DNA from: Patescibacteria group bacterium | GTDB lineage: Bacteria > Patescibacteriota > Patescibacteriia > JAHIZJ01 | Direction: 5' to 3' | Length of the DNA stretch: 62,560 nt | Assembly: GCA_018814765.1 (NCBI GenBank) | Contig: JAHIZJ010000085.1 | Coordinates: 1 to 62,560 of the forward strand | Shown here: piece by piece, positions 3,805-31,904 of the stretch | Layout of the letters: every line of letters begins with the position of its first letter | How positions within the stretch are numbered: position 1 is the stretch's first letter | Position numbers and translations under genes: made by a program | The notes under the pieces: generated by a model | Databases searched by the model: none | What the model was told of the DNA's origin: nothing | Seen by the model: only the letters and a program-made list of their open reading frames with translations

Positions 3805-4962
3805 ATGGAAGATTCTATACTCGACAAAGTAATATCGAGCAAACAAAGCCAAGAATTAAGAGAGTTTAATCCCCCAGAGACTGTGGCTGCTTTATTGAAG
3901 CAATTAACCGATAAAGAAGAGGACATTTTAAGACGCCGATACGGATTAAATGGTAAGCATAAGCAAACCCTAGAGGAAATTGGAAAATTCTATAATTTAA
4001 CTCGTGAACGTATTAGGCAGGTTGAAAGTACAGCCATAAAGAAGCTCAAGGCTTTGAAAAACTTCTCTGACTTAATTGAGGGAATTGATCATACAATAAA
4101 ATCAGTCTTAGAGCAGAATGGTGGCGCTATTTCAAAAGAGCATTTAGTTGAACAATTATTTGAATTTACAACAGATACACCAGTTAGTCGTCAGTCGGTT
4201 ACATTTATTATTTCAAAGCTACTAAGTGACAGGTTTTTAAATCAACCCGCTACAAGCTATTTTCGTTCATCGTGGCGTTTGCCCAGTGTCTCTATAGACA
4301 GTATTCGTAAGGTGATTGACAACATGATTGTTATAATCAGTGAAAAAAATCATCCTATGACTGAACAGGAAATAACCAAAGCTTATTGGCAAAGGTATCC
4401 TAATGATGGCGCTAACGTGGATTCAAGTTTGGATGACCATGCTTTGATTGGCTACATAACCATGAGCCAAAAAATTGATCGCAACCCATTTAATGATTAT
4501 GGTTTAACTGGCTGGGGTACTATTGTTCCGCGTAGAATGAACGATAAAATATATTTGGTTTTGAAGAAAGAGGGAAAGCCTATGCATTTTATTAAAATTG
4601 CTGAGCGTATTAATAAGATTAACTTTGATAAACGTAGAGCTTACCCACCGACAGTTCACAATGAATTAATATTAAATGATCGCTATGTTCTAGTCGGTCG
4701 TGGAATATATGCTCTAAAAGAGTGGGGCTATAAGCCTGGTGTTGTGGCAGATGTGATTACACAGATACTAAAGAAAAATGGCGAACCTATGAAGCGTAAA
4801 GATATTGTTGAAGAAGTGTTAGGCCAACGTATGGTAAAAAATAATACTATCCATTTAGCTTTAACTGATACAAGTAAATTTAAACGTTTACCAGACGGAC
4901 GATATGGCTTAGTTGATGAGGCCATTGTTGAAACATCTGATTCTGCAAAAACAAACACATAA
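3805..4962 (+). CDS. Sigma-70 region-4 domain protein with C-terminal HARE-HTH-like repeats
   Basis: Residues about 25-85 (LTDKEEDILRRRYGLNGKHKQTLEEIGKFYNLTRERIRQVESTAIKKLK) match the RpoD region 4.2 consensus. I see no region 2. Two or three C-terminal segments resemble the RNAP-delta/HARE-HTH winged helix (KKEGKPMHFIKIAERI...GRGIYALKEWGY; LKKNGEPMKRKDIVEEVL...DGRYGL). Confidence 0.7.
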   Translation: MEDSILDKVISSKQSQELREFNPPETVAALLKQLTDKEEDILRRRYGLNGKHKQTLEEIGKFYNLTRERIRQVESTAIKKLKALKNFSDLIEGIDHTIKSVLEQNGGAISKEHLVEQLFEFTTDTPVSRQSVTFIISKLLSDRFLNQPATSYFRSSWRLPSVSIDSIRKVIDNMIVIISEKNHPMTEQEITKAYWQRYPNDGANVDSSLDDHALIGYITMSQKIDRNPFNDYGLTGWGTIVPRRMNDKIYLVLKKEGKPMHFIKIAERINKINFDKRRAYPPTVHNELILNDRYVLVGRGIYALKEWGYKPGVVADVITQILKKNGEPMKRKDIVEEVLGQRMVKNNTIHLALTDTSKFKRLPDGRYGLVDEAIVETSDSAKTNT

Positions 4963-4977
4963 AGTACAAATAATATT

Positions 4978-6477
4978 ATGCCATTCGAAATAGGTTTCAG
5001 CGGATCTTCGGTCACTGAAAATATACTGCCATTTACTTACTTTTGGCGTTTTTTTATTGAGGGCGGATGGATATTTTTCGGTATAGCTCTTATAATAATT
5101 GGTTATAGATTTTGGCTACTCAGAAAGCGTGAGGCCTTTATTAGATCAAAGAATTTTATATTGTTAGCCATTGATGTGCCACGCGAGATTGAACCAAATC
5201 TAAAAGCGATCGAACATATTTATTCACAGTTTGCAGGTATCTATTCCGAACCAAACCATGTTGAAAAATATCTTAAAGGAAAAGTACAACTTTATCTAAG
5301 TCTAGAGCTGGTAAGTATCGGCGGCTACATACAATTTATCATTCGTACGCCGGATAAATACCGTGATTTGGTTGAAGCTGCTTTTTATGCGCAGTATCCC
5401 GAAGCTGTCATAACTGAGGTGGAGGACTATACTGATGGAGCGGTAGAGAAGTTCCCCAATGATAAATATGAACTCTATGGTTCGGGGATAGCTTTTAATA
5501 AACCAAGTCCCTATCCGATAAAAACATACATTGCATTTGAACACAGCCTGTCGCAGGCACTGGCTGATCCAATGGCTTCTTTGTTGGAAATTCTGAGTAA
5601 AATAAAACAAGGGGAGCAGATTTGGATACAACTAGTTATCCGTCCGAAAGAAAAGAAAGATTGGCTAGATGAAGCCCAAAGGATTGTTAATAAAATTGTC
5701 GGAGAAAAAGTAGAAGCAAAAAATGCATTTGGACCACTTGGTGCCATAACGCGTGGCGCATTTCAAACCGTTACAGCCTCTCTTGTAGAATCGAACGTGG
5801 AAGAACAAAAGCAGAAAGATGGTCCAAAAAATTGGTTGATGCAGCTGACACCGGGTGAAAGATCCGTTGTGGAGGCGATTCAACTAAAGATCGCAAAAAA
5901 AGCCTATGAAACCAAATTTCGCTATATCTACCTGGCTGAAAAAGAGGTGGTTAACAAGGGTATTGGTATAAATGCTATGTTTGGCGCGTTACATCAGTTT
6001 AGTGCAATGGACCTGAATAGTTTTAGGCCGGACAAACGGACTTTTACCAAAACTAATTTCATATTCTTCTCAAAGAGTCGTTTAGCCAGAAGACAAAGGC
6101 AATTGATGAAAAATTTTAAAATGCGACAGCCGGGTCATGGTATTATCTTGAATACGGAAGAGCTGGCCAGTATTTTTCATTTCCCGACAGAAAATGTTAA
6201 AGCTCCATTGGTTAAAAAAATAGATAGCAAGCGTGGTGAACCGCCTGTCGGCTTACCCATGGAAGCCGGATACTCTCCGTTAAAATCGGTGGCTAGTGTC
6301 CCACAAGCAGAACCGGCTCCACCAGCACATACCCCTGCGCCTATGGCTCCACAGAGTGAGTCAATACCAGCACCTAGAGAACAATCGGATATTCCTACTG
6401 ACATACCTACAAAAAGAGAAACTCCACCTAGTCGTGCGGGAACAAATCAACCGCCACCTAACCTTCCTTTTGAATAA
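4978..6477 (+). CDS. Membrane-anchored uncharacterised protein, N-terminal partner of the VirD4/TraG-like ATPase
   Basis: One or two N-terminal TM segments. Clearly homologous to the N-terminal half of the 28535..31087 protein (YAQYPEAVITEVEDY vs QAQYPDAEVQQVEDY; DPMASLLEILSKIK...IQLVIRP vs DPMNALTNVLSQIK...IQILIRP; NTEELASIFHFP vs NTEELTSIFHLP). Pro-rich tail of about 60 aa. Confidence 0.8.
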   Translation: MPFEIGFSGSSVTENILPFTYFWRFFIEGGWIFFGIALIIIGYRFWLLRKREAFIRSKNFILLAIDVPREIEPNLKAIEHIYSQFAGIYSEPNHVEKYLKGKVQLYLSLELVSIGGYIQFIIRTPDKYRDLVEAAFYAQYPEAVITEVEDYTDGAVEKFPNDKYELYGSGIAFNKPSPYPIKTYIAFEHSLSQALADPMASLLEILSKIKQGEQIWIQLVIRPKEKKDWLDEAQRIVNKIVGEKVEAKNAFGPLGAITRGAFQTVTASLVESNVEEQKQKDGPKNWLMQLTPGERSVVEAIQLKIAKKAYETKFRYIYLAEKEVVNKGIGINAMFGALHQFSAMDLNSFRPDKRTFTKTNFIFFSKSRLARRQRQLMKNFKMRQPGHGIILNTEELASIFHFPTENVKAPLVKKIDSKRGEPPVGLPMEAGYSPLKSVASVPQAEPAPPAHTPAPMAPQSESIPAPREQSDIPTDIPTKRETPPSRAGTNQPPPNLPFE

Positions 6478-6479
6478 TT

Positions 6480-8138
6480 ATGGCAGAAGCTAACGTTCCA
6501 AATGATAATGTAACACTCTTCGCTGAAACAAATTATAGAAACCAGCGCAGAAGTTTTGGTATTAAGCTAGACGACCGCCGCCGCCACATGTATGTAATCG
6601 GAAAAACTGGCATGGGGAAAACAACCATGCTGGAAAATATGATAATCTCTGATATCAGGGCTGGGCATGGTGTTGCCGTGGTTGACCCCCATGGTGACTT
6701 GGTAGAGGAAATTATTGACTACATACCTCCAAGGCGAATAAATGATATAGTCTACTTTAATCCTTCGGACATTGATTATCCGATCGCTTTTAATGTTCTA
6801 GAGTCAGTTAATCCCGTACACAGGCATTTGGTGGCGTCGGGTTTATTAGGTGTGTTCAAAAAAATATGGGCTGATTCTTGGGGTCCTCGGCTGGAGTATG
6901 TATTGCGTAATACTATACTTACATTACTGGAATATCCCGGTTCCACTCTGCTTGGGATTACCCGTTTATTGGTAGATGACAAATATCGAAAAAAAGTTCT
7001 GGAAAATTTAAATGACCCCATTCTAAAAGCTTTTTGGATAGATGAATATGGTGCTTACAGCAATCAGTTTAGAACTGAAGCGATTTCTCCTATTCAGAAT
7101 AAGGTTGGTCAGTTTTTATCAAGCTCAATAATCCGTAATATTGTCGGTCAAACAAAAAGCTCCATAGACATGAGAGATATTATGGATTCAAAAAAAATAC
7201 TCTTGCTTAATCTATCAAAAGGACGCATAGGTGAAGACAATTCGGCTCTATTGGGCGCAATGATGATTACAAAGCTCCAGTTGGCAGCTATGAGCCGTGT
7301 TGATATTGAAGAGGACGAAAGAAAAGACTTTTTTCTATATGTTGATGAATTTCAGAACTTTGCCACTGAAAGTTTTGCCAATATTCTATCTGAAGCCAGA
7401 AAATACAGACTTAATCTTATAATTGCCCACCAGTATATTGAACAGATTGATGAAATAGTCAGAGCTGCAGTCTTTGGTAATGTAGGTACGCTGGTGAGCT
7501 TCCGTATAGGTGCGGCTGATGCTGAGTTTTTAGAAAAGGAATTTGAGCCTGTTTTCACTATGAACGATCTGGTGAATTTAACAAAATATGAAGTATACCT
7601 GAAGCTTATGATTGATGGTATGGCATCTGAGCCATTTTCAGCAAAAGGACTGCCACCACTCTTGGGAGACAAACCAGAGGATAATCGCGGCAAGGTAATA
7701 AATATTTCGCGTGAGCGGTATGCTAACCAACGTAGTGTTGTTGAAGATAAAATAATGCGCTGGACAGGAATGCATGAGGACCAGCAACCAGAGAAAAACA
7801 GCCAAGTAAGTGGTACGGACAAAAAAAATAACAGAAAACCCGAAAGACGAAATAATTTTTCCAACAATCAGAAAGGCCGATTTTCTAAAAATGATTCACC
7901 AAGACGCCCAGCACCAAGTTATACAAATACCAAGAAGGAAGAAGTGCGGGTTATTGAAGAGAAAGTCACTACACAGCCAGCCATAAGCCTACAAGAGGCG
8001 GTTACTCGTGAGCCGGTTTCGTTTAAGAATAGACGTAAGCCATCTCAGAATAGGCCTGATAATCGCAAGGAAAATCCAAGAGGACCTAGCGGGAATACAC
8101 AAAAGAGTATACGGCCCGACGAGGTAGTACGTTTTTAG
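6480..8138 (+). CDS. VirD4/TraG/TraD-like P-loop NTPase (type IV coupling-protein family), soluble form
   Basis: Walker A GKTGMGKTT (nt 6600-6626), DPHGDL motif, Walker B-like LYVDEFQNF, SEARKYRLNLIIAHQY. Lys/Arg-rich disordered C-terminal tail of about 110 aa. The start lies 2 nt after the upstream stop. Confidence 0.75.
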   Translation: MAEANVPNDNVTLFAETNYRNQRRSFGIKLDDRRRHMYVIGKTGMGKTTMLENMIISDIRAGHGVAVVDPHGDLVEEIIDYIPPRRINDIVYFNPSDIDYPIAFNVLESVNPVHRHLVASGLLGVFKKIWADSWGPRLEYVLRNTILTLLEYPGSTLLGITRLLVDDKYRKKVLENLNDPILKAFWIDEYGAYSNQFRTEAISPIQNKVGQFLSSSIIRNIVGQTKSSIDMRDIMDSKKILLLNLSKGRIGEDNSALLGAMMITKLQLAAMSRVDIEEDERKDFFLYVDEFQNFATESFANILSEARKYRLNLIIAHQYIEQIDEIVRAAVFGNVGTLVSFRIGAADAEFLEKEFEPVFTMNDLVNLTKYEVYLKLMIDGMASEPFSAKGLPPLLGDKPEDNRGKVINISRERYANQRSVVEDKIMRWTGMHEDQQPEKNSQVSGTDKKNNRKPERRNNFSNNQKGRFSKNDSPRRPAPSYTNTKKEEVRVIEEKVTTQPAISLQEAVTREPVSFKNRRKPSQNRPDNRKENPRGPSGNTQKSIRPDEVVRF

Positions 8139-8147
8139 ATACCAAAA

Positions 8148-8681
8148 ATGAAAAATTATATCCTAATCAGTACATTAGTAATATTTCTTTTTTTACCTCG
8201 AGTAGTTAAGGCCGAAACGCCTGTCGAGTTGTATTATTTTTATGAAAATGATTGTTCTGCCTGCTCTGACATGAGTGATACTCTGGAGTTTCTCAGGAAC
8301 AAATATACTGGGACCATGATTAGTAGATTTGATGTTACTGATGACTTGGTCAAGCGAACAATTTTTAATGACTTGTTGGATATTTATCGTGAACCACAGA
8401 CCTCAGTGCCGACAGTATTTGTGGGTAGTGATGTGTTTGTCGGTTACACAGCTCTATCAACAAATGAGATTGAGACAGCTATACAATACTGCCAATTGAA
8501 TAACTGCCCTTCACCCAGCGAATTACTAAAAGACTATTACGCCAGTCTTTCAGGGGAAGAGACAGACAATACCAGCAAGATAGTATTCTGGACAATTTTT
8601 ATAGTAGCTTGGCCATTATTGGGAGCAGTTGCCGTGATTATCGTTTTAAGGAAATATAAAGATAAGGATATACAAGGATAG
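8148..8681 (+). CDS. Exported thioredoxin/glutaredoxin-like CxxC protein with C-terminal TM anchor
   Basis: Signal peptide MKNYILISTLVIFLFLPRVVKA, CSAC motif in a YYFYENDCSACSD context, C-terminal hydrophobic helix IVFWTIFIVAWPLLGAVAVIIVL. Confidence 0.6.
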   Translation: MKNYILISTLVIFLFLPRVVKAETPVELYYFYENDCSACSDMSDTLEFLRNKYTGTMISRFDVTDDLVKRTIFNDLLDIYREPQTSVPTVFVGSDVFVGYTALSTNEIETAIQYCQLNNCPSPSELLKDYYASLSGEETDNTSKIVFWTIFIVAWPLLGAVAVIIVLRKYKDKDIQG

Positions 8682-16657: not shown

Positions 16658-16701
16658 TTGGTTAATTGGATGATTAGTTGATTTGTTGACTGGAGAGATT
16701 G

Positions 16702-16912
16702 AAAAAAGGCCCGGTCAGACAAGGTCCAACCGGGCTAGCGAAACGGAGAATCAGGGATCACAGCAAGGTCGATAGGATCAATAGCTACGTAGAGCCGTGG
16801 CGTACTCCAACGAAGAAACGTTAGCTGGGGACCGAACGAGTCTTCGCGGTAACTAGTGACCCAGCAGCTAGCCTATCTGGTCACCCCATTCCTCCTTGTC
16901 CTGAGGAAGGAC
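16702..16912 (-). ncRNA. Candidate sRNA, array unit 1 (about 210 nt)
   Basis: Minus-strand promoter TTTACA (16947-16942), N17, TATTAT (16924-16919). The terminator has a 12-bp stem (16709-16735) with G:U pairs only in the minus-strand reading, followed by U6. 5' GGAGGAAUGGGG is imperfectly complementary to 3' CCCUGAUUCUCC. Confidence 0.7.
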
Positions 16913-16953
16913 AAGTATATAATAGTTGAATATAATAACTGTGTAAAGTGAAT

Positions 16954-17181
16954 AAAAAAAGAACCCCCCCACCCATGATACATGAATGCATATGGGTGAG
17001 GGGCGAGTGCGGAGAAACGGGAAGCTGATGAACAGATGCAGAGCCGATGGCTATTAAAGAGCGCCTAAGACGCCCCAACCCCAGGAAACTCCGATCCCCC
17101 TTTTTATCTTTGTTCCCCAGTAATAGCTAAAGCTCTGCAAAGCCCATAGCTCCAGTCTCTCCAGCGGGGCGACAGAACGTC
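16954..17181 (-). ncRNA. Candidate sRNA, array unit 2 (about 228 nt)
   Basis: Promoter TTGACA (17216-17211), N17, TATTAT (17193-17188). Terminator stem CCCCUCACCCAU/AUGGGUGGGGGGG followed by UUCUUUUUUU. 5' GC(U)GGAGAGAC pairs with 3' GUUUCUCCGC. Confidence 0.7.
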
Positions 17182-17222
17182 CTAAATATAATAAAATATT
17201 AGATATTATTTGTCAAATTAAT

Positions 17223-17454
17223 AAAAAAAGAACCTGGCCAGACAAATGCCTAACCGGGCTAGCGGAGGAATAGAGGTCCCGGCGTACCGACAAAAAGTGA
17301 CAGGAACGCTGAAGTAATCTCGTGCCACAAGCCCTTGCGTTATCCCCGAGGAGTCTGCCGGAGCAGTTGGGGAAAAGGAAGGATTCGCGACCAACAGCAT
17401 CCGCAGTCATAGTCGGTCGCTATTCTAGATTCCTCCAGTATACGGGTGGTATGC
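17223..17454 (-). ncRNA. Candidate sRNA, array unit 3 (about 232 nt)
   Basis: Promoter TTTACA (17489-17484), N17, TGATAT (17466-17461). The terminator hairpin is homologous to those of units 1 and 5 (one mismatch) and is followed by U7. 5' GGAGGAAU (17436-17429) is exactly complementary to 3' AUUCCUCC (17271-17264). Confidence 0.65.
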
Positions 17455-17495
17455 ATCCACATATCAAACGATAATAGATATTTTGTAAAGAGAGA

Positions 17496-17687
17496 TAAAA
17501 TCCCGGTAGAACTGTTGTCCTACCGGGTCGGAGAAACAGGCATGGGTAAACTGAAACTACTGGCATGAATGGGGCCCCATCACTAGATAGACGGATTAGT
17601 ACCTTTGCAGGCCGGGAAGCCCATCTACACGAGTAACGGCATCCATCGTACGTATCAGCTACCGAACTGTTTCTCCTCGAACGTGGT
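17496..17687 (-). ncRNA. Candidate sRNA, array unit 4 (about 192 nt)
   Basis: Promoter TTTACA (17722-17717), N17, TAAAAT (17699-17694). 8-bp terminator stem CCCGGUAG/CUACCGGG followed by a U-rich tail. 5' GGAGAAACAG (17676-17667) is exactly complementary to 3' CUGUUUCUCC (17539-17530). Confidence 0.7.
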
Positions 17688-17744
17688 ATGTACATTTTAT
17701 ATAAATAACGCTATTTTGTAAAGTTGCAGGATGGTTCAGGATAG

Positions 17745-17954
17745 AAAAAGGCCCGGCCAGACAGAGTCTAACCGAGCCGAAGTGGAGAAACGGGAGTCAC
17801 AGAAGGTCATAGAGCTAGGTGTTACGAGGGGTGCCAGGAAACACCCAAGATAGGAAAAAGTCCGCTTGCCAAAGAGCTAATTCCCAATGTAACCACCACG
17901 CTTGACTCATCAGTTATCCTTGTCTCTCCGTGCATCATAGGAGGTTCTATGACA
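17745..17954 (-). ncRNA. Candidate sRNA, array unit 5 (about 210 nt)
   Basis: Promoter TTGACA (17989-17984), N17, TAACAT (17966-17961). 13-bp terminator stem GGCUCGGUUAGAC/GUCUGGCCGGGCC followed by U5. 5' GGAGAGAC is complementary to 3' GUUUCUCC. Confidence 0.7.
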
Positions 17955-18055
17955 AGATTCATGTTACAATTATAGAAGTTGATTGTCAATAATAAAGAAT
18001 TGGCAGGCGAGGATAGTCATAAAAAATGACAGCAGGGAGTGATTTTGGAGCTGTT

Positions 18056-27306: not shown

Positions 27307-27840
27307 TTAGCGAGAAAGCATTTGACCTCGATTCGTACACTTTCTCACAAAAATGAGTAGGCGGTGGATTACCATGTCTTCCGGAGCGTCATCCTCGCTC
27401 CGCCCGAAAGTGAACATGACCTCGATGATGTGGGTTCCATCATCAAGGTTTCCAACTGAGAATTCTCTAGAAATGTTGTTTTTCGAGCACCTTCGAGTGT
27501 TGCGCCAATGGCGTTTGTCGTCGATCCTGTACTTTGTCTCCAGGACCCTCAAACCCATTGGAACATCAGGAGTTAGTCCAATGGTGACCTTTTTGAGATA
27601 GCTCACCATCGAGCTGGTTTGCCAACTTGTAATGTTGTCTTGAGTTCCCAACTTCGTAGTTCCAATTGGAACGAAGCGGTGATCGATACCAGAGCGCAGG
27701 CAGTAAGCTGCCGGCGAACCCTGGAATAGTCCAGAATAGTGGTCCGCATCCAGTTGTACGAAGCCAACTGCGGTCAAACATCCGGGTGTCGTCAGAACGA
27801 AGAGAAGGCCAATCCAAGCAAAGAACGTGTAAGTCCGCAT
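27307..27840 (-). CDS. Putative lipoprotein, GC-rich gene
   Basis: I prefer the internal ATG at 27840, which has GGAGG 6 nt upstream. That start gives MRTYTFFAWIGLLFVLTTPGC (signal peptide plus a lipobox-like Cys). Visibly higher GC than the flanks. No family recognised. Confidence 0.55.
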   Translation of the reverse strand: MRTYTFFAWIGLLFVLTTPGCLTAVGFVQLDADHYSGLFQGSPAAYCLRSGIDHRFVPIGTTKLGTQDNITSWQTSSMVSYLKKVTIGLTPDVPMGLRVLETKYRIDDKRHWRNTRRCSKNNISREFSVGNLDDGTHIIEVMFTFGRSEDDAPEDMVIHRLLIFVRKCTNRGQMLSR

Positions 27841-27999
27841 AGTTTTCCTCCATTCATGAAGAACCTTTGAGTTCTGTAACAAGCCAACAAAGATCAATTG
27901 AACTGAATAGGATAGCATGAAGAGGTATTTCTGTCAATACATAGTTTAAAGAAAGACTTGCTAAAAAGCCTTTTTTATGATATATTTAATCAGACGAGT

Positions 28000-28530
28000 A
28001 TGCAATTTTCACAAGAAGACAAAAAACTAAATGCTGAAAAACAGCATCAGTCCATCAAAGAATCTGAAACCGGAAGGTTAAAACCCGAACCCGGCCGTGT
28101 TGAAGTTGAAAGAGACATTGAGAGAAAAACTGAGCAAGAAGATGTAACTAAAAAAGAAAAAGATCGTTCCTTACAGGATACGAAGGAAACAACAACAGCC
28201 GTCCCACAACCCACTCCTTCAGTCCCAGTAACTCCAAGCAAGACTGCTGTGCGTCAGCAAGTAGAGAATATACTAGAGGAGGATTTACAAGAGATATACC
28301 AACGCATGGACGATAAATCAAAAAAGCGATTCAAAAACGAAGGAGAAAAAACAGCCAGTAAAATAGAAATACTTCTAATTGGCACCCGCGTAAAAGTCAA
28401 TAGTATATTTAAACTTATTAAAAAATGGTTACGCGTTATTCCCGGTGTGAATAAATACTTCCTAGAACAAGAGGCCAAAATAAAAACAGACAAACTCATT
28501 CTGATTAAAAAAGACCAAGACCAAGAATAA
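28000..28530 (+). CDS. Highly charged Lys/Glu-rich hypothetical protein upstream of fused ATPase
   Basis: ORF track start is a TTG at 27958. The first ATG, at 28000, fits a putative TTGCTA-N17-TATATT promoter (27958-27986). The stop lies 4 nt before the 28535 start. Confidence 0.5.
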   Translation: MQFSQEDKKLNAEKQHQSIKESETGRLKPEPGRVEVERDIERKTEQEDVTKKEKDRSLQDTKETTTAVPQPTPSVPVTPSKTAVRQQVENILEEDLQEIYQRMDDKSKKRFKNEGEKTASKIEILLIGTRVKVNSIFKLIKKWLRVIPGVNKYFLEQEAKIKTDKLILIKKDQDQE

Positions 28531-28534
28531 AACT

Positions 28535-31087
28535 ATGATTGGTGTATTAGTAACATTACCCGCAGCTACAGAGACGGACACAACATTTGGAATTGCCTCG
28601 GGAGAATCTTTATTATTTAATATTTTTCTGATTATTGGAGCTGTCATAGTACTGATTGTACTCCTTTTTTTAGTTAGGAAGATATTTATATACAGTGGAC
28701 GAATGCCCAGCGCGTTACGCCGAACAATATTACTTGTTACCGTACCAAAAGAACATATGGAGCTGGAAGAAAAGAGTGATCGTCCTCAAGGAGGCATAAA
28801 AGAATTAATGGGGGTGTCCGAGGCTCTCTATGCAAATTTTGGTGGTGTAGTCAGACAACAAAAGTGGTACTCACGTCTTATCTTTGGTCGGCAGGATCAC
28901 ATATCGTTAGAAATAGTGGCTAATCAGGGATACGTTTCATTTTATTTTGTAACACCCGATAGGTATAAGGAATTTGTTGAACAGCAGATTCAGGCACAAT
29001 ACCCCGACGCTGAAGTACAGCAAGTAGAGGACTACAATATTTTTTCACCCAGCGGTGTAATCCGTTGTAATTACTTGAAGTTAATAAAACGAAGCATGTT
29101 TCCCATTAGGACATATCAGAAACTGGAAACAGACCCTATGAATGCCCTGACAAACGTCTTGAGTCAGATCAAAGAACCGGAAGGAGCTGCTATTCAAATA
29201 TTGATTCGTCCAGCACCCAAGAGATGGCAATCAGGGGCTCTAGAATACTCCCGACGGGTTGTCAAAGGCAAGGGAGAAAAGGGCATACTTGAGGGGGCTA
29301 TGGGGGGGATTTTAAGTTCAGCAGTTTCCAGCAAAGAAGGTGACCAAAAAGAGTTGGAAAAAGAGCGTATGTATAGAATGTCACCGGTTGAGGAAGAGAA
29401 GATAAAAGCCGTAGGAGAAAAGGTCAGCAAGCTGGGATTTGAAACAAATATCAGGGTTATAGTCTCAGCCAGTGATTCCGATCGAGCTCAAGTGTTCACT
29501 GAAAACATTATTAATAGTTTTTCACAATATTCATCACAAGAAGTAGGCAATAGTTTTAGGCGTATACGTGTTTTAAGAAAAGGAAGATTTATTCGGGACT
29601 TTATATATCGTCACTTCAGGTCTAGGTATAGGTATGTACTAAACACCGAAGAGCTTACCAGTATATTTCACCTACCTCTATCTAATACAGAAACACCCAA
29701 TATTCGATGGTCTGTCGCTAAGCATTCTGCTCCACCGGTCGAGCTACCAAATGAAGGAATAATCTTGGGTGTTAGTCATTATCGCGGTAAGGATTTATTG
29801 GTACGTCTTAAGGAAGATGACCGACGTCGCCACCTTTATACTATTGGTAAGTCAGGTACAGGAAAATCAGTTTTTCTGACTAATCTGGCCGTTCAAGATA
29901 TTAAAAATGGCAAAGGTGTTTGTGTTGTTGATCCACATGGTGATTTAATTGAAGATATACTAGGTCAGATTCCTGAAGAAAGGGTTGACGATGTAATTAT
30001 ATTCAATCCATCGGATATGGATCGGCCGGTTGGCTTAAATATGCTTGAAGCCAGTTCACCGGAAGAAAAGGATTTTGCGGTTCAGGAAATGATTGCAATC
30101 TTCTATAAACTCTTCCCGCCGGAGATGATTGGTCCAATGTTTGAACATAATATGAGAAATGTTATGTTGACATTGATGTCTGACCTGGAGCACCCGGGCA
30201 CAATAGTGGAAATTCCTCGCATGTTTACAGATCCAGTTTTCCAAAAAGAAAGATTAAAGAAAGTAACTGATCCGGTTGTTAGAAGTTTTTGGGAAAAAGA
30301 AATGGCCAAAACTACTGATTTTCATAAATCAGAGATGTTGGGATATCTGATCTCCAAGGTAGGGCGCTTCGTTGAAAATGAAATGATGCGAAATATTATT
30401 GGCCAATCCTGTTCTGGTTTTGATTTCAAAGAAATAATGAACAACAAGAAAATACTACTTGTTAACCTATCGAAAGGTAAGACGGGAGAGGTTAATAGCT
30501 CACTTCTGGGGCTCATAATAGTATCAAAGTTACAGATGGCTGCATTATCCAGGGCGGACGTGGCACAAGAAGAAAGGTCTGATTTTTATCTCTATATTGA
30601 CGAGTTCCAAAACTTTATTACTGATAGTATCGCCACAATATTATCTGAAGCTAGAAAATACCGATTGAATTTAACCATTGCACATCAATATATTGGACAA
30701 TTGGTTGAAAATAACGATACTAAGATTCGGGACGCTGTTTTGGGAAATGCCGGAACCATAGTTGCTTTTAAGATAGGTGTTGAAGATTCAGAAATTGTTT
30801 CAAAAATATTTGCCCCGGTTTTCAATGATTATGATGTACTGAATATAGAGAAGTATAATGCTTATATTAAATTATTGGTTGACAATCAACCAACGAGAGC
30901 CTTTAACTTTGCTACTATTCCTCCTATGACAGGCAACAGAGAATTAGCGGAACGAATAAAAGAACTTTCACGAACCAAATATGGTCATGATAAAAAGCAA
31001 GTAGAGTCTGAAATAGCAGAACGTGGGCGCTTGGGTATGGCAGATGCTTCAGCAGTACGTGATTTTGGCTCTGAACCAAAAGTATAA
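28535..31087 (+). CDS. Fused membrane module + VirD4/TraG-like P-loop NTPase (850 aa)
   Basis: The N-terminal half is homologous to 4978..6477 and the C-terminal half to 6480..8138 (RRRHLYTIGKSGTGKS...VVDPHGDLIEDI...FYLYIDEFQNF...SEARKYRLNLTIAHQY). Confidence 0.85.
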   Translation: MIGVLVTLPAATETDTTFGIASGESLLFNIFLIIGAVIVLIVLLFLVRKIFIYSGRMPSALRRTILLVTVPKEHMELEEKSDRPQGGIKELMGVSEALYANFGGVVRQQKWYSRLIFGRQDHISLEIVANQGYVSFYFVTPDRYKEFVEQQIQAQYPDAEVQQVEDYNIFSPSGVIRCNYLKLIKRSMFPIRTYQKLETDPMNALTNVLSQIKEPEGAAIQILIRPAPKRWQSGALEYSRRVVKGKGEKGILEGAMGGILSSAVSSKEGDQKELEKERMYRMSPVEEEKIKAVGEKVSKLGFETNIRVIVSASDSDRAQVFTENIINSFSQYSSQEVGNSFRRIRVLRKGRFIRDFIYRHFRSRYRYVLNTEELTSIFHLPLSNTETPNIRWSVAKHSAPPVELPNEGIILGVSHYRGKDLLVRLKEDDRRRHLYTIGKSGTGKSVFLTNLAVQDIKNGKGVCVVDPHGDLIEDILGQIPEERVDDVIIFNPSDMDRPVGLNMLEASSPEEKDFAVQEMIAIFYKLFPPEMIGPMFEHNMRNVMLTLMSDLEHPGTIVEIPRMFTDPVFQKERLKKVTDPVVRSFWEKEMAKTTDFHKSEMLGYLISKVGRFVENEMMRNIIGQSCSGFDFKEIMNNKKILLVNLSKGKTGEVNSSLLGLIIVSKLQMAALSRADVAQEERSDFYLYIDEFQNFITDSIATILSEARKYRLNLTIAHQYIGQLVENNDTKIRDAVLGNAGTIVAFKIGVEDSEIVSKIFAPVFNDYDVLNIEKYNAYIKLLVDNQPTRAFNFATIPPMTGNRELAERIKELSRTKYGHDKKQVESEIAERGRLGMADASAVRDFGSEPKV

Positions 31088-31259: not shown

Positions 31260-31904
31260 ATGTCAGATACAACAAAACTAAAAAAAATAAAAGAAGCCAT
31301 AGAAAACGCTCAAACAAACATCCAAATGGCTAAGCATTTACTTTCGGAAATGGGTATTACTAGCGATGTAGACATTGATGATGAACCAGCCGGAGCAGTA
31401 GAAGGAAAAGTAAGCGAAGGGCCGGAGGGTAAGATTATTGAAGGAATCTTTGATGGTCAGAACATGAATGGGCCGGATGGAAAACAGTACTCAGTCCCAG
31501 CAAACTATGCTTCAAAGTCGAAGCTAGTTGAAGGCGACACGCTCAAGCTCACAATTACTCCGGACGGATCCTTTGTCTATAAGCAGATTGGACCAATAGA
31601 TAGACTGCGGGTTGTAGGCACTCTAACCAAGGATGACCAAACAAGTGAGTTCCGTGTTTTGGCAAAAAATAAAAGCTTCAAAGTACTATTGGCAAGCGTT
31701 ACATATTTCAAAGGAGAATCTGGCGATGAAGTCGTTATTCTTATACCTAAAGATAAAGACACTAAATGGGCAGCTGTAGAGAACATTATTAAGAAGGGTG
31801 AAGAAGTAAAAACAGTTATTGATGAAGACAATGTAAATATAATAGATGATACTGATGACGACCTACTGGACGATAAGCCTGAAGAAAAAGTGGATACTGA
31901 GTAG
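31260..31904 (+). CDS. Hypothetical protein with acidic C-terminal tail
   Basis: N-terminal helix, central beta-rich region and a DDTDDDLLDD tail. No family recognised. Confidence 0.6.
   Translation: MSDTTKLKKIKEAIENAQTNIQMAKHLLSEMGITSDVDIDDEPAGAVEGKVSEGPEGKIIEGIFDGQNMNGPDGKQYSVPANYASKSKLVEGDTLKLTITPDGSFVYKQIGPIDRLRVVGTLTKDDQTSEFRVLAKNKSFKVLLASVTYFKGESGDEVVILIPKDKDTKWAAVENIIKKGEEVKTVIDEDNVNIIDDTDDDLLDDKPEEKVDTE

Follow-up and report, generated by a model that had tools for sequence, protein, structure and literature searches.

A fused and a split copy of a DUF8128-bearing, coupling-protein-like ATPase on one Patescibacteria contig

Contig JAHIZJ010000085.1 of a Patescibacteria genome (GCA_018814765.1), whose 62,560 nt are hereafter called the window and supply the numbering for all positions, encodes the same two-part unit twice, once as a single fused gene for an 850-aa protein and once as two adjacent genes for a 499-aa protein (the N-protein) and a 552-aa ATPase. 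This arrangement raises the question of what the unit is, whether the split is a genuine and old feature, and whether the separated halves would still act together. Our analysis favors, with a probability of roughly 60%, the reading that both copies are type IV coupling proteins (T4CPs) of the monoderm type, paralogs of ancient origin that have become fixed in the chromosome, of which the fused copy (paralog B) keeps the ancestral single-chain form and the split copy (paralog A) was fissioned at its linker, its halves reassembling as a motor that feeds a type IV secretion system (T4SS). Both belong to a known, widespread, and functionally uncharacterised family, the Patescibacteria T4CP homologues with a DUF8128 domain, and no new kind of system is revealed.

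The fused protein aligned to both genes of the split locus, its residues 23-408 to residues 29-430 of the N-protein (137 bits, E = 1e-38, 29% identity over 426 columns) and its residues 404-827 to residues 6-425 of the split ATPase (388 bits, E = 6e-130, 44% identity over 428 columns). Being colinear and meeting at the interdomain linker (fused residues 404-408), these alignments together span the whole fused protein. A preliminary description of this DNA had proposed such an end-to-end match, and the N-terminal similarity, whose possible insignificance it had named as grounds for rejection, proved highly significant. The coordinates of its three reading frames were exact (Table 1), and the three peptide pairs that it quoted were all found, with the trivial slip that the split-gene peptides had been listed first and the labels were swapped. 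At the split junction the DNA reads ...CCT TTT GAA TAA TT ATG GCA..., with the stop TAA at 6475-6477, a spacer of 2 nt, and an ATG at 6480 in another frame; the proline-rich tail described there as about 60 aa comprises the 69 aa after residue 430 of the N-protein, of which 26% are proline. The description of a fission/fusion pair within one genome also agrees with at least two other genomes in which a related contig carries both forms at separate loci, on ERZ13693045 NODE_11 at 125-143 and 679-697 kb, on SCUL01000002.1 at 94-108 and 159-173 kb.

Table 1. Coordinates and features of the two copies and of the genes beside them (L numbers are our working labels for related loci; TM, transmembrane)
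Feature	Position (nt)	Strand	Length (aa)	Residues and remarks
Upstream partner of the split copy	3805..4962	+	385	Sigma70_r4 E 9.7e-15, HARE-HTH E 1.3e-10 (Pfam); DNA-binding
Split copy (paralog A), N-protein	4978..6477	+	499	
N-protein, TM helix				aa 28-47
N-protein, DUF8128 (alpha/beta)				~aa 58-420, then Pro-rich disordered linker
N-protein, PPVGLP	6241-6258	+		aa 422-427
N-protein, terminal PPPNLP	6451-6468	+		aa 492-497
Split copy (paralog A), ATPase	6480..8138	+	552	
Split ATPase, Walker A	6600-6623	+		GKTGMGKT
Split ATPase, DPHGD	6684-6698	+		
Split ATPase, Walker B	7332-7355	+		FLYVDEFQ
Gene 3' of the split copy	8148..8681	+	177	thioredoxin-fold membrane protein; TraF-like NCBIfam match E 1e-3 (weak)
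Reading frame divergent from the small-partner gene	27307..27918	-	203	lipobox-like LTTPGC
Small partner of the fused copy	27958..28530	+	176-190	start ATG 28000 or TTG 27958
Fused copy (paralog B)	28535..31087	+	850	
Fused copy, TM helix				aa 27-47
Fused copy, DUF8128				~aa 62-400
Fused copy, junction PPVELP	29732-29749	+		
Fused ATPase, Walker A	29846-29869	+		GKSGTGKS
Fused ATPase, DPHGD	29930-29944	+		
Fused ATPase, Walker B	30587-30610	+		YLYIDEFQ
Protein between the fused gene and dnaX	31260..31904	+	214	same position in L003, L007, L008

The N-terminal half had been called a membrane module, a label that does not hold, as it is mainly soluble and combines one transmembrane (TM) helix with a soluble alpha/beta domain of about 370 aa. 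Precomputed database annotation places Pfam PF26449 (DUF8128) on both window proteins and on nearly all of their listed homologues; the assignment is that of the precomputed annotation, PF26449 being absent from the Pfam set that we scanned, and scans of the N-protein against this set and NCBIfam gave no match. Likewise, a profile search with the N-domain alignment against PDB sequences returned nothing up to E = 10. AlphaFold2 models of the N-protein (predicted local distance difference test, pLDDT, 84; predicted template-modelling score, pTM, 0.77; disordered tail) and of the fused protein (pLDDT 86.9, pTM 0.78) both place the sole hydrophobic segment, followed by Arg/Lys, on one long N-terminal helix, and on the positive-inside rule we predict an N-out, C-in topology with a cytoplasmic DUF8128 domain. 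The junction motif occurs twice in the N-protein, on either side of the proline-rich linker, and the junction is ordered in the fused model (pLDDT 88-93) as opposed to 58-62 in the model of the N-protein alone.

On its profile matches, the C-terminal half is a TrwB/VirD4-type T4CP ATPase. The fused copy, and only this copy, matched T4SS-DNA_transf (PF02534; E = 4.4e-12, 46.1 bits against a cutoff of 20.1), and both copies matched TrwB_AAD_bind (PF10412; 31.5 bits for the fused and 43 bits, E = 3.6e-11, for the split copy, cutoff 20.5) and TraG-D_C (PF12696, above its gathering cutoff), matches to DUF87/HerA being weaker. Walker A, Walker B, DPHGD, ARKYRL, and AHQY motifs are intact in both copies, and the split ATPase ends in a basic tail of 122 aa with a net charge of +12. 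The features shared with TrwB (R388), VirD4, TraD, and Cag-beta are a P-loop ATPase of the FtsK/HerA superfamily, an all-alpha insertion, and an N-terminal membrane anchor. In the fused model a helical insertion (approximately residues 509-636) lies between strands of the nucleotide-binding domain, within the stretch covered by the TrwB_AAD_bind profile (residues 426-747), and Foldseek matched this model to TrwB with a template-modelling score of about 0.65, a root-mean-square deviation of about 5 A, and E = 3e-12. The anchor has one helix rather than the usual two, and in the split copy it resides on the separate N-protein. The window proteins thus differ from these T4CPs in that the two-helix transmembrane domain gives way to a single TM helix followed by DUF8128 (about 370 aa), and from classical T4CPs in being chromosomal, in their housekeeping surroundings, and in occurring as two paralogs per genome. 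A role in defence was considered and rejected, PADLOC having returned only generic ATPase matches (mad8, HerA).

The split form proved to be widespread among relatives. Among database homologues of the N-protein, every one of the best 120 is stand-alone and 415-551 aa long. They come from many Patescibacteria lineages, reach down to 38% identity, and in 116 cases are annotated with PF26449 only; the fused protein, by comparison, has more than 6,000 homologues, the best 120 of which are nearly all 800-890 aa long with both DUF8128 and T4CP domains. We then surveyed 80 loci from GTDB species representatives, those with the nearest relatives of the N-protein (Kerfeld-, Buchanan-, Uhr-, Magasanik-, Falkow-, Moranbacteria, and others; loci and proteins are cited below by L and P numbers where needed). 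The N gene is followed by an ATPase gene in 57 of the 80, in relative frames 0, 1, and 2, with a candidate ATPase start at most 15 nt from the N-gene stop in roughly 34 of these 57; spacers range among species from -14 to more than 200 nt, and the identity of the stop codon varies as well. None of the 80 loci holds a truly fused gene, the one call to that effect (L022) reflecting an in-frame stop and no fusion. In another 16 loci no ATPase gene lies within 2 kb downstream of the N gene, so that the ATPase must be encoded elsewhere or have been lost; the N-proteins of these 16 loci (L018, L039, L043, L044, L046, L053, L055, L065, and others) mostly have an intact C-terminal PPxNLP motif, and in L043 a glycosyltransferase gene comes after the N-protein gene.

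Across the survey, the extreme C-terminus of the N-protein nearly always reads ...PPxNLP[F/I/V]x, and P493, N495, L496, and P497 are nearly invariant among the 120 homologues. Fused proteins of the A type carry EPPxNLP directly before the ATPase N-terminus (xxTxFAxTNFR), which places the break precisely at the linker between the domains. When the split ATPase was searched against the full database with HMMER, 23,929 matches were returned; the best 150 representatives are all nearer to the split ATPase than to the fused paralog, and 64 of the 150 have a DUF8128-like N-terminal region in the same chain. In a neighbor-joining tree of ATPase domains (50%-identity representatives, rooted on the paralog B clade), fused A-type forms make up a basal grade, and 66 of the 75 split forms, including that of the window, fall within one clade of 70. 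Because the fused forms are basal in this distance tree, the split is a derived fission at the interdomain linker, and the topology points to one main fission of a formerly fused gene in the ancestor of a large Patescibacteria subclade. Three fused A-type proteins (P0254, P0257, and P0267) nest in the otherwise split clade, perhaps through re-fusion or the merging of gene calls.

Proteins with this architecture are found beyond Patescibacteria as well. The PHROGs profile phrog_5156, of unknown function, matched fused residues 113-831 (E = 1.6e-91), and each split half matched the corresponding part of the profile. With tblastn, full-architecture homologues were found in 43 phage records, mostly of Bacillus phages, and gp156 of the jumbo phage G was matched at E = 1e-51 over 86% of the fused query; related genes (phrog_5156) occur in SP-10-like, PBC5-like, and other Bacillus phages. 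Plasmid records numbered 428 (Bacillus, Streptomyces, Staphylococcus, Clostridium, haloarchaea, and Sulfolobus), of which only 16 cover at least 80% of the query. On a 63.6-kb B. subtilis plasmid (NZ_OX419581), a 913-aa fused "DUF87 protein" is followed by a relaxase of the replication-relaxation family, TcpD/TcpE-family genes, and a TcpF-like VirB4; the split-N profile matched this protein over the N-domain in hhalign (probability 96.6%, E = 6e-10). In phage G, the DUF8128 plus T4CP protein gp156 lies directly downstream of a VirB4-like gp155 (L090, 3231..7373). The Bacillus plasmid and phage G proteins share the two-domain architecture of the window proteins at about 20-26% identity, but they adjoin relaxase, Tcp, or VirB4-like genes.

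A split arrangement is also found on the Halalkalicoccus plasmid NZ_CP144124, where genes for a stand-alone DUF8128 protein (447 aa) and a "TraM recognition domain" T4CP ATPase (1023 aa) come after a VirB4-like gene, the stop of the first overlapping the start of the second by 4 nt (ATGA). The 447-aa protein matched the fused-type profile in hhalign (probability 98.2%, E = 3e-14) and reached a probability of only 0.7% against the split-type profile. This pair differs from paralog A in being archaeal, plasmid-borne, and 3' of a VirB4-like gene, and in having neither the TM helix nor the PPxNLP motif, and its split is probably an independent fission. The N-terminal TM helix is absent from all three of the homologues checked (the Bacillus plasmid protein, phage G gp156, and the haloarchaeal protein). 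Since the paralog ATPases are 44% identical to one another and only about 20-30% identical to any plasmid or phage homologue, the A/B duplication appears to have arisen within the Patescibacteria lineage.

The claim that the two halves act as one unit is favored by the fused form being the norm among the more than 6,000 homologues, by the split-type ATPases that carry the N-domain, and by the plasmid, phage, and archaeal cases. Fission of a two-domain gene is an ordinary event, and with fused forms prevailing, a Rosetta-stone argument contributes little. What the comparison does provide is a view of DUF8128 as an integral and separable machine part, with an alternation of fused and split states that recurs (fused on the Bacillus plasmid or in phage G, split on the haloarchaeal plasmid), and a link between an uncharacterised Pfam domain and the conjugative coupling proteins of Bacillus, Bacillus phages, and one haloarchaeal plasmid. 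In the literature searched, "DUF8128" occurs in no paper, and related searches gave only a 2025 survey and one review; that literature holds no description of two ancient paralogs with distinct partners, of a conserved fission with a terminal PPxNLP, of a link from DUF8128 to plasmid, phage, or archaeal T4CPs, or of a VirB4-like fold.

The two copies lie in different and conserved neighborhoods. For paralog A, the order SecD-SecF-[sigma70 region 4 + HARE-HTH]-DUF8128-ATPase is that of the window and persists in relatives as distant as 38-40% identity. Of the GTDB loci, 74 have sufficient upstream sequence; in 42 of these HARE-HTH directly precedes the N gene, and in 44 SecF lies upstream (next to the N gene in 22, on the far side of HARE-HTH in 19, and at a greater distance in 3); the sigma-r4/HARE-HTH gene lies directly 5' of the N-module gene in L001, L002, L005, and L006. 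For paralog B, the order in seven genomes is CysS/CorA(-)-[small protein]-fused gene-...-[~200-aa protein]-DnaX. All seven genomes examined have a homologue of the small protein in this place (E = 1e-29 to 1e-43). Its N-terminal half is variable and rich in Lys/Glu/Pro, and its C-terminal domain, about 95 aa long, is strongly conserved. In the window the gene ends 4 nt before the fused gene, and where the gap was measured (three loci) it came to 2 to 7 nt. The preliminary description had given each copy its own upstream partner, which stands for the small protein in all seven genomes and as a frequent, not universal, association for HARE-HTH; its portrayal of the latter partner as a small protein with HARE-HTH only was mistaken, as the gene is larger and also encodes a sigma-70 region 4 (Table 1). 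The two copies are ancient paralogs and not a recent duplication, and two ancient paralogs with different conserved neighbors match the roughly two T4CP copies per Patescibacteria genome that have been published.

Both copies are surrounded in the window by housekeeping genes (SecDF, DnaK/DnaJ, CysS, CorA, DnaX, and glycosyltransferases). No T4SS or relaxase neighbor was found across 10 Pfam-annotated related loci, with the exception of a T4SS_pilin gene (PF18895) two genes 3' of the fused paralog in L095 (8389..8742), the sole T4SS-component neighbor among the Patescibacteria loci examined.

Under the preferred reading, each unit would be anchored by a single N-terminal TM helix, which leads into a DUF8128 domain on the cytoplasmic side and then a P-loop ATPase that resembles TrwB/VirD4 and contains an all-alpha insertion. 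Fission of paralog A left the PPxNLP junction peptide as the C-terminus of the N-protein, with the genes still 2 nt apart. The split polypeptides would come together again as the motor that the fused form makes, anchored in the membrane and probably hexameric, a proposal that we base on the order of the junction in the fused model and on the retention of the junction peptide at the N-protein C-terminus, and DUF8128 together with this peptide would dock the ATPase at the membrane. An adaptor of its own, the sigma-r4/HARE-HTH protein for A and the small conserved protein for B, may recruit the substrate to each motor, which, powered by ATP hydrolysis, would pass it on to a translocon, most likely the VirB4-type T4SS of Patescibacteria. 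Paralog A would most likely move DNA or nucleoprotein, because of the DNA-binding neighbor and the basic tail of the ATPase. The scheme gives testable hypotheses on protein partners, the terminal peptide, and adaptors.

Several observations weigh against this reading. The NCBIfam T4CP equivalogs compared (CD1115 family, SXT_TraD, TOL TraD, and F-type TraD) were matched far below their cutoffs (at best 44.7 bits against 250 and 51.1 against 366), and we therefore regard the window proteins as a distant T4CP subclass with no named equivalog. The neighbor-joining tree is without support values, and some of its "split" representatives may be truncated reading frames; our account of how the split halves interact, in what oligomeric state they work, which substrate is moved, and what the adaptors do is inferred. 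The 62.5-kb window holds no virB4, relaxase, or other T4SS gene. In a published survey, 5,713 VirD4-type T4CP homologues were counted in 2,918 of 3,035 Patescibacteria genomes (96% of them, with about two homologues each); only 148 of these homologues lie near virB4, and VirB4 itself was found in fewer genomes (2,417) (PMC12102498). T4CP-like ATPases are by these counts among the most widespread genes of Patescibacteria, away from T4SS genes. In addition, the T4CP homologue of Ca. S. epibionticum is cited there as non-essential for epibiotic growth and the T4SS genes as essential (PMC12102498, second-hand); the main text of the primary paper (Wang et al. 2023) is without the words VirD4, T4CP, or VirB4, and the non-essentiality was not confirmed there.

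The same architecture and history could also belong to exapted proteins, that is, to T4SS-independent membrane translocases or motors serving, for example, DNA uptake, segregation, or SecDF-linked protein handling, a possibility that we take seriously and hold to be somewhat unlikely. It would account for the conserved housekeeping contexts of both loci (SecDF; CorA/CysS/DnaX) across distant genomes, for the wider spread of T4CP homologues than of VirB4 and their rarity near virB4 (PMC12102498), and for the TM helix of the Patescibacteria versions that the three plasmid, phage, and archaeal homologues do not have, and the survey itself leaves room for exaptation (PMC12102498). However, T4CP genes are often located away from mating-pair-formation genes in any case (PMC12102498), every non-Patescibacteria homologue whose context was inspected adjoins a VirB4-like gene or a relaxase, and one relative has the pilin gene mentioned above near paralog B.

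A bolder extension of the T4CP reading concerns VirB4. Searched with the N-protein alone, Foldseek gave TrwK/VirB4 (R388) chains as its top 11 matches (E = 2e-4 to 3e-3 over approximately 430-450 columns), which amount to one independent target at a template-modelling score of about 0.3, and with the full fused model its best full-length match was TrwK/VirB4 (E = 7e-15, approximately 900 columns), followed by TrwB, Cag-beta, and HerA. These model-based matches suggest that DUF8128 resembles the VirB4 N-terminal domain and that the layout of N-terminal domain plus ATPase is the same, although the ATPase half of the window proteins is T4CP-like and not VirB4-like. Comparison of the N-domain and full-length alignments with TrwK and the TcpF-like VirB4 in hhalign gave probabilities of 0.4-9%, with any alignment falling at the P-loop; no CagE_TrbE_VirB or VirB4 Pfam match was found, and NCBIfam VirB4_plasma matched at the level of the P-loop only (E = 1e-3 to 1e-4). 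With these sequence-profile tests negative, the likeness is one seen by Foldseek, and we do not claim homology from it. A precedent for such a domain as its own gene is TrsD of the TrsD/TrsE systems, which in pGO1-type monoderm T4SSs is separately encoded, resembles the N-terminal region of VirB4, and is common in Patescibacteria (PMC12102498). We considered and rejected the identification of DUF8128 with TrsD, which lies near virB4 at about one per genome (PMC12102498), DUF8128 going with the T4CP homologue; as published counts and locations differ, the two would be different genes. It is doubtful, and put forward as speculation, that DUF8128 is a true homologue of the VirB4 N-terminal domain and that this T4CP class keeps an ancestral VirB4-like layout, as a "missing link" between VirB4 and classical T4CPs, domesticated in Patescibacteria as two near-universal, chromosomal, adaptor-specific motors, one of them made of two polypeptides joined through a PPxNLP docking peptide, which would transport DNA or protein as part of a process at the heart of the epibiotic lifestyle, perhaps independently of the canonical T4SS.

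That the loci are remnants of an integrated conjugative element or a prophage is very improbable. The family does occur on plasmids and in Bacillus phages, and phrog_5156 is matched, but no integrase or phage gene lies in the 62.5-kb window and no relaxase or VirB4 gene is nearby, SecDF or CorA/DnaX synteny is kept down to 38-40% identity, and plasmid and phage versions are more distant from the window proteins (about 20-30% identity) than the paralogs are from each other (44%).

A sequencing or assembly error, or a recent nonsense or frameshift mutation turning the locus into a pseudogene, might be suspected from the stop and 2-nt shift that separate halves kept fused in the paralog. It is hardly credible given the survey of relatives: 57 of the 80 species representatives are split alike, all 120 top homologues of the N-protein are stand-alone, frames and spacers vary by species as the C-terminal motif is kept, both reading frames are intact with full catalytic motifs, and fusing them would require the loss of a stop plus a frameshift. 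The split is thus no assembly error, being kept in dozens of species in three relative frames, and the possibility of an artefact raised in the preliminary description falls away. Programmed recoding, by which stop read-through and a frameshift would yield a fused protein from the split locus, has the short 2-nt spacer in its favor and nothing else, and is next to untenable, since relative frame, stop codon identity, and spacer length all vary across species, leaving no conserved recoding signal, and 16 loci have an N gene with no ATPase gene downstream.

Several of the neighboring genes deserve brief mention. The product of the thioredoxin-fold gene 3' of the split copy combines a CxxC motif with a signal peptide and a TM helix at the C-terminus; such a gene follows the ATPase in the close relatives L001 and L002, with DsbA-like genes next to it, and is absent from this position in the more distant L005 and L006. 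The small partner of the fused copy gave no NCBIfam match, and a borderline Pfam match to DUF2057 (24.7 bits against a cutoff of 24.2), which covers the Lys/Glu-rich region, was discounted as compositional. A 182-aa reading frame is placed in L003 and L008 like the lipobox-bearing one of the window. The syntenic 214-aa protein before DnaX has no family assignment and has a highly conserved core, GQNMxGPDGKQYSVPANYASKSKLVEGDTLKLTI. After dnaK, approximately 1.3 kb of the window (~16,660..18,000) is without a reading frame of at least 100 aa on either strand and without an Rfam match at the gathering threshold; the Rfam scan of the whole window found only a tRNA-Gln. Finally, many of the GTDB loci (e.g., L011, L019, and L087) with clear Patescibacteria gene content and synteny are titled "uncultured Gammaproteobacteria bacterium," evidently a placeholder or mislabelling.

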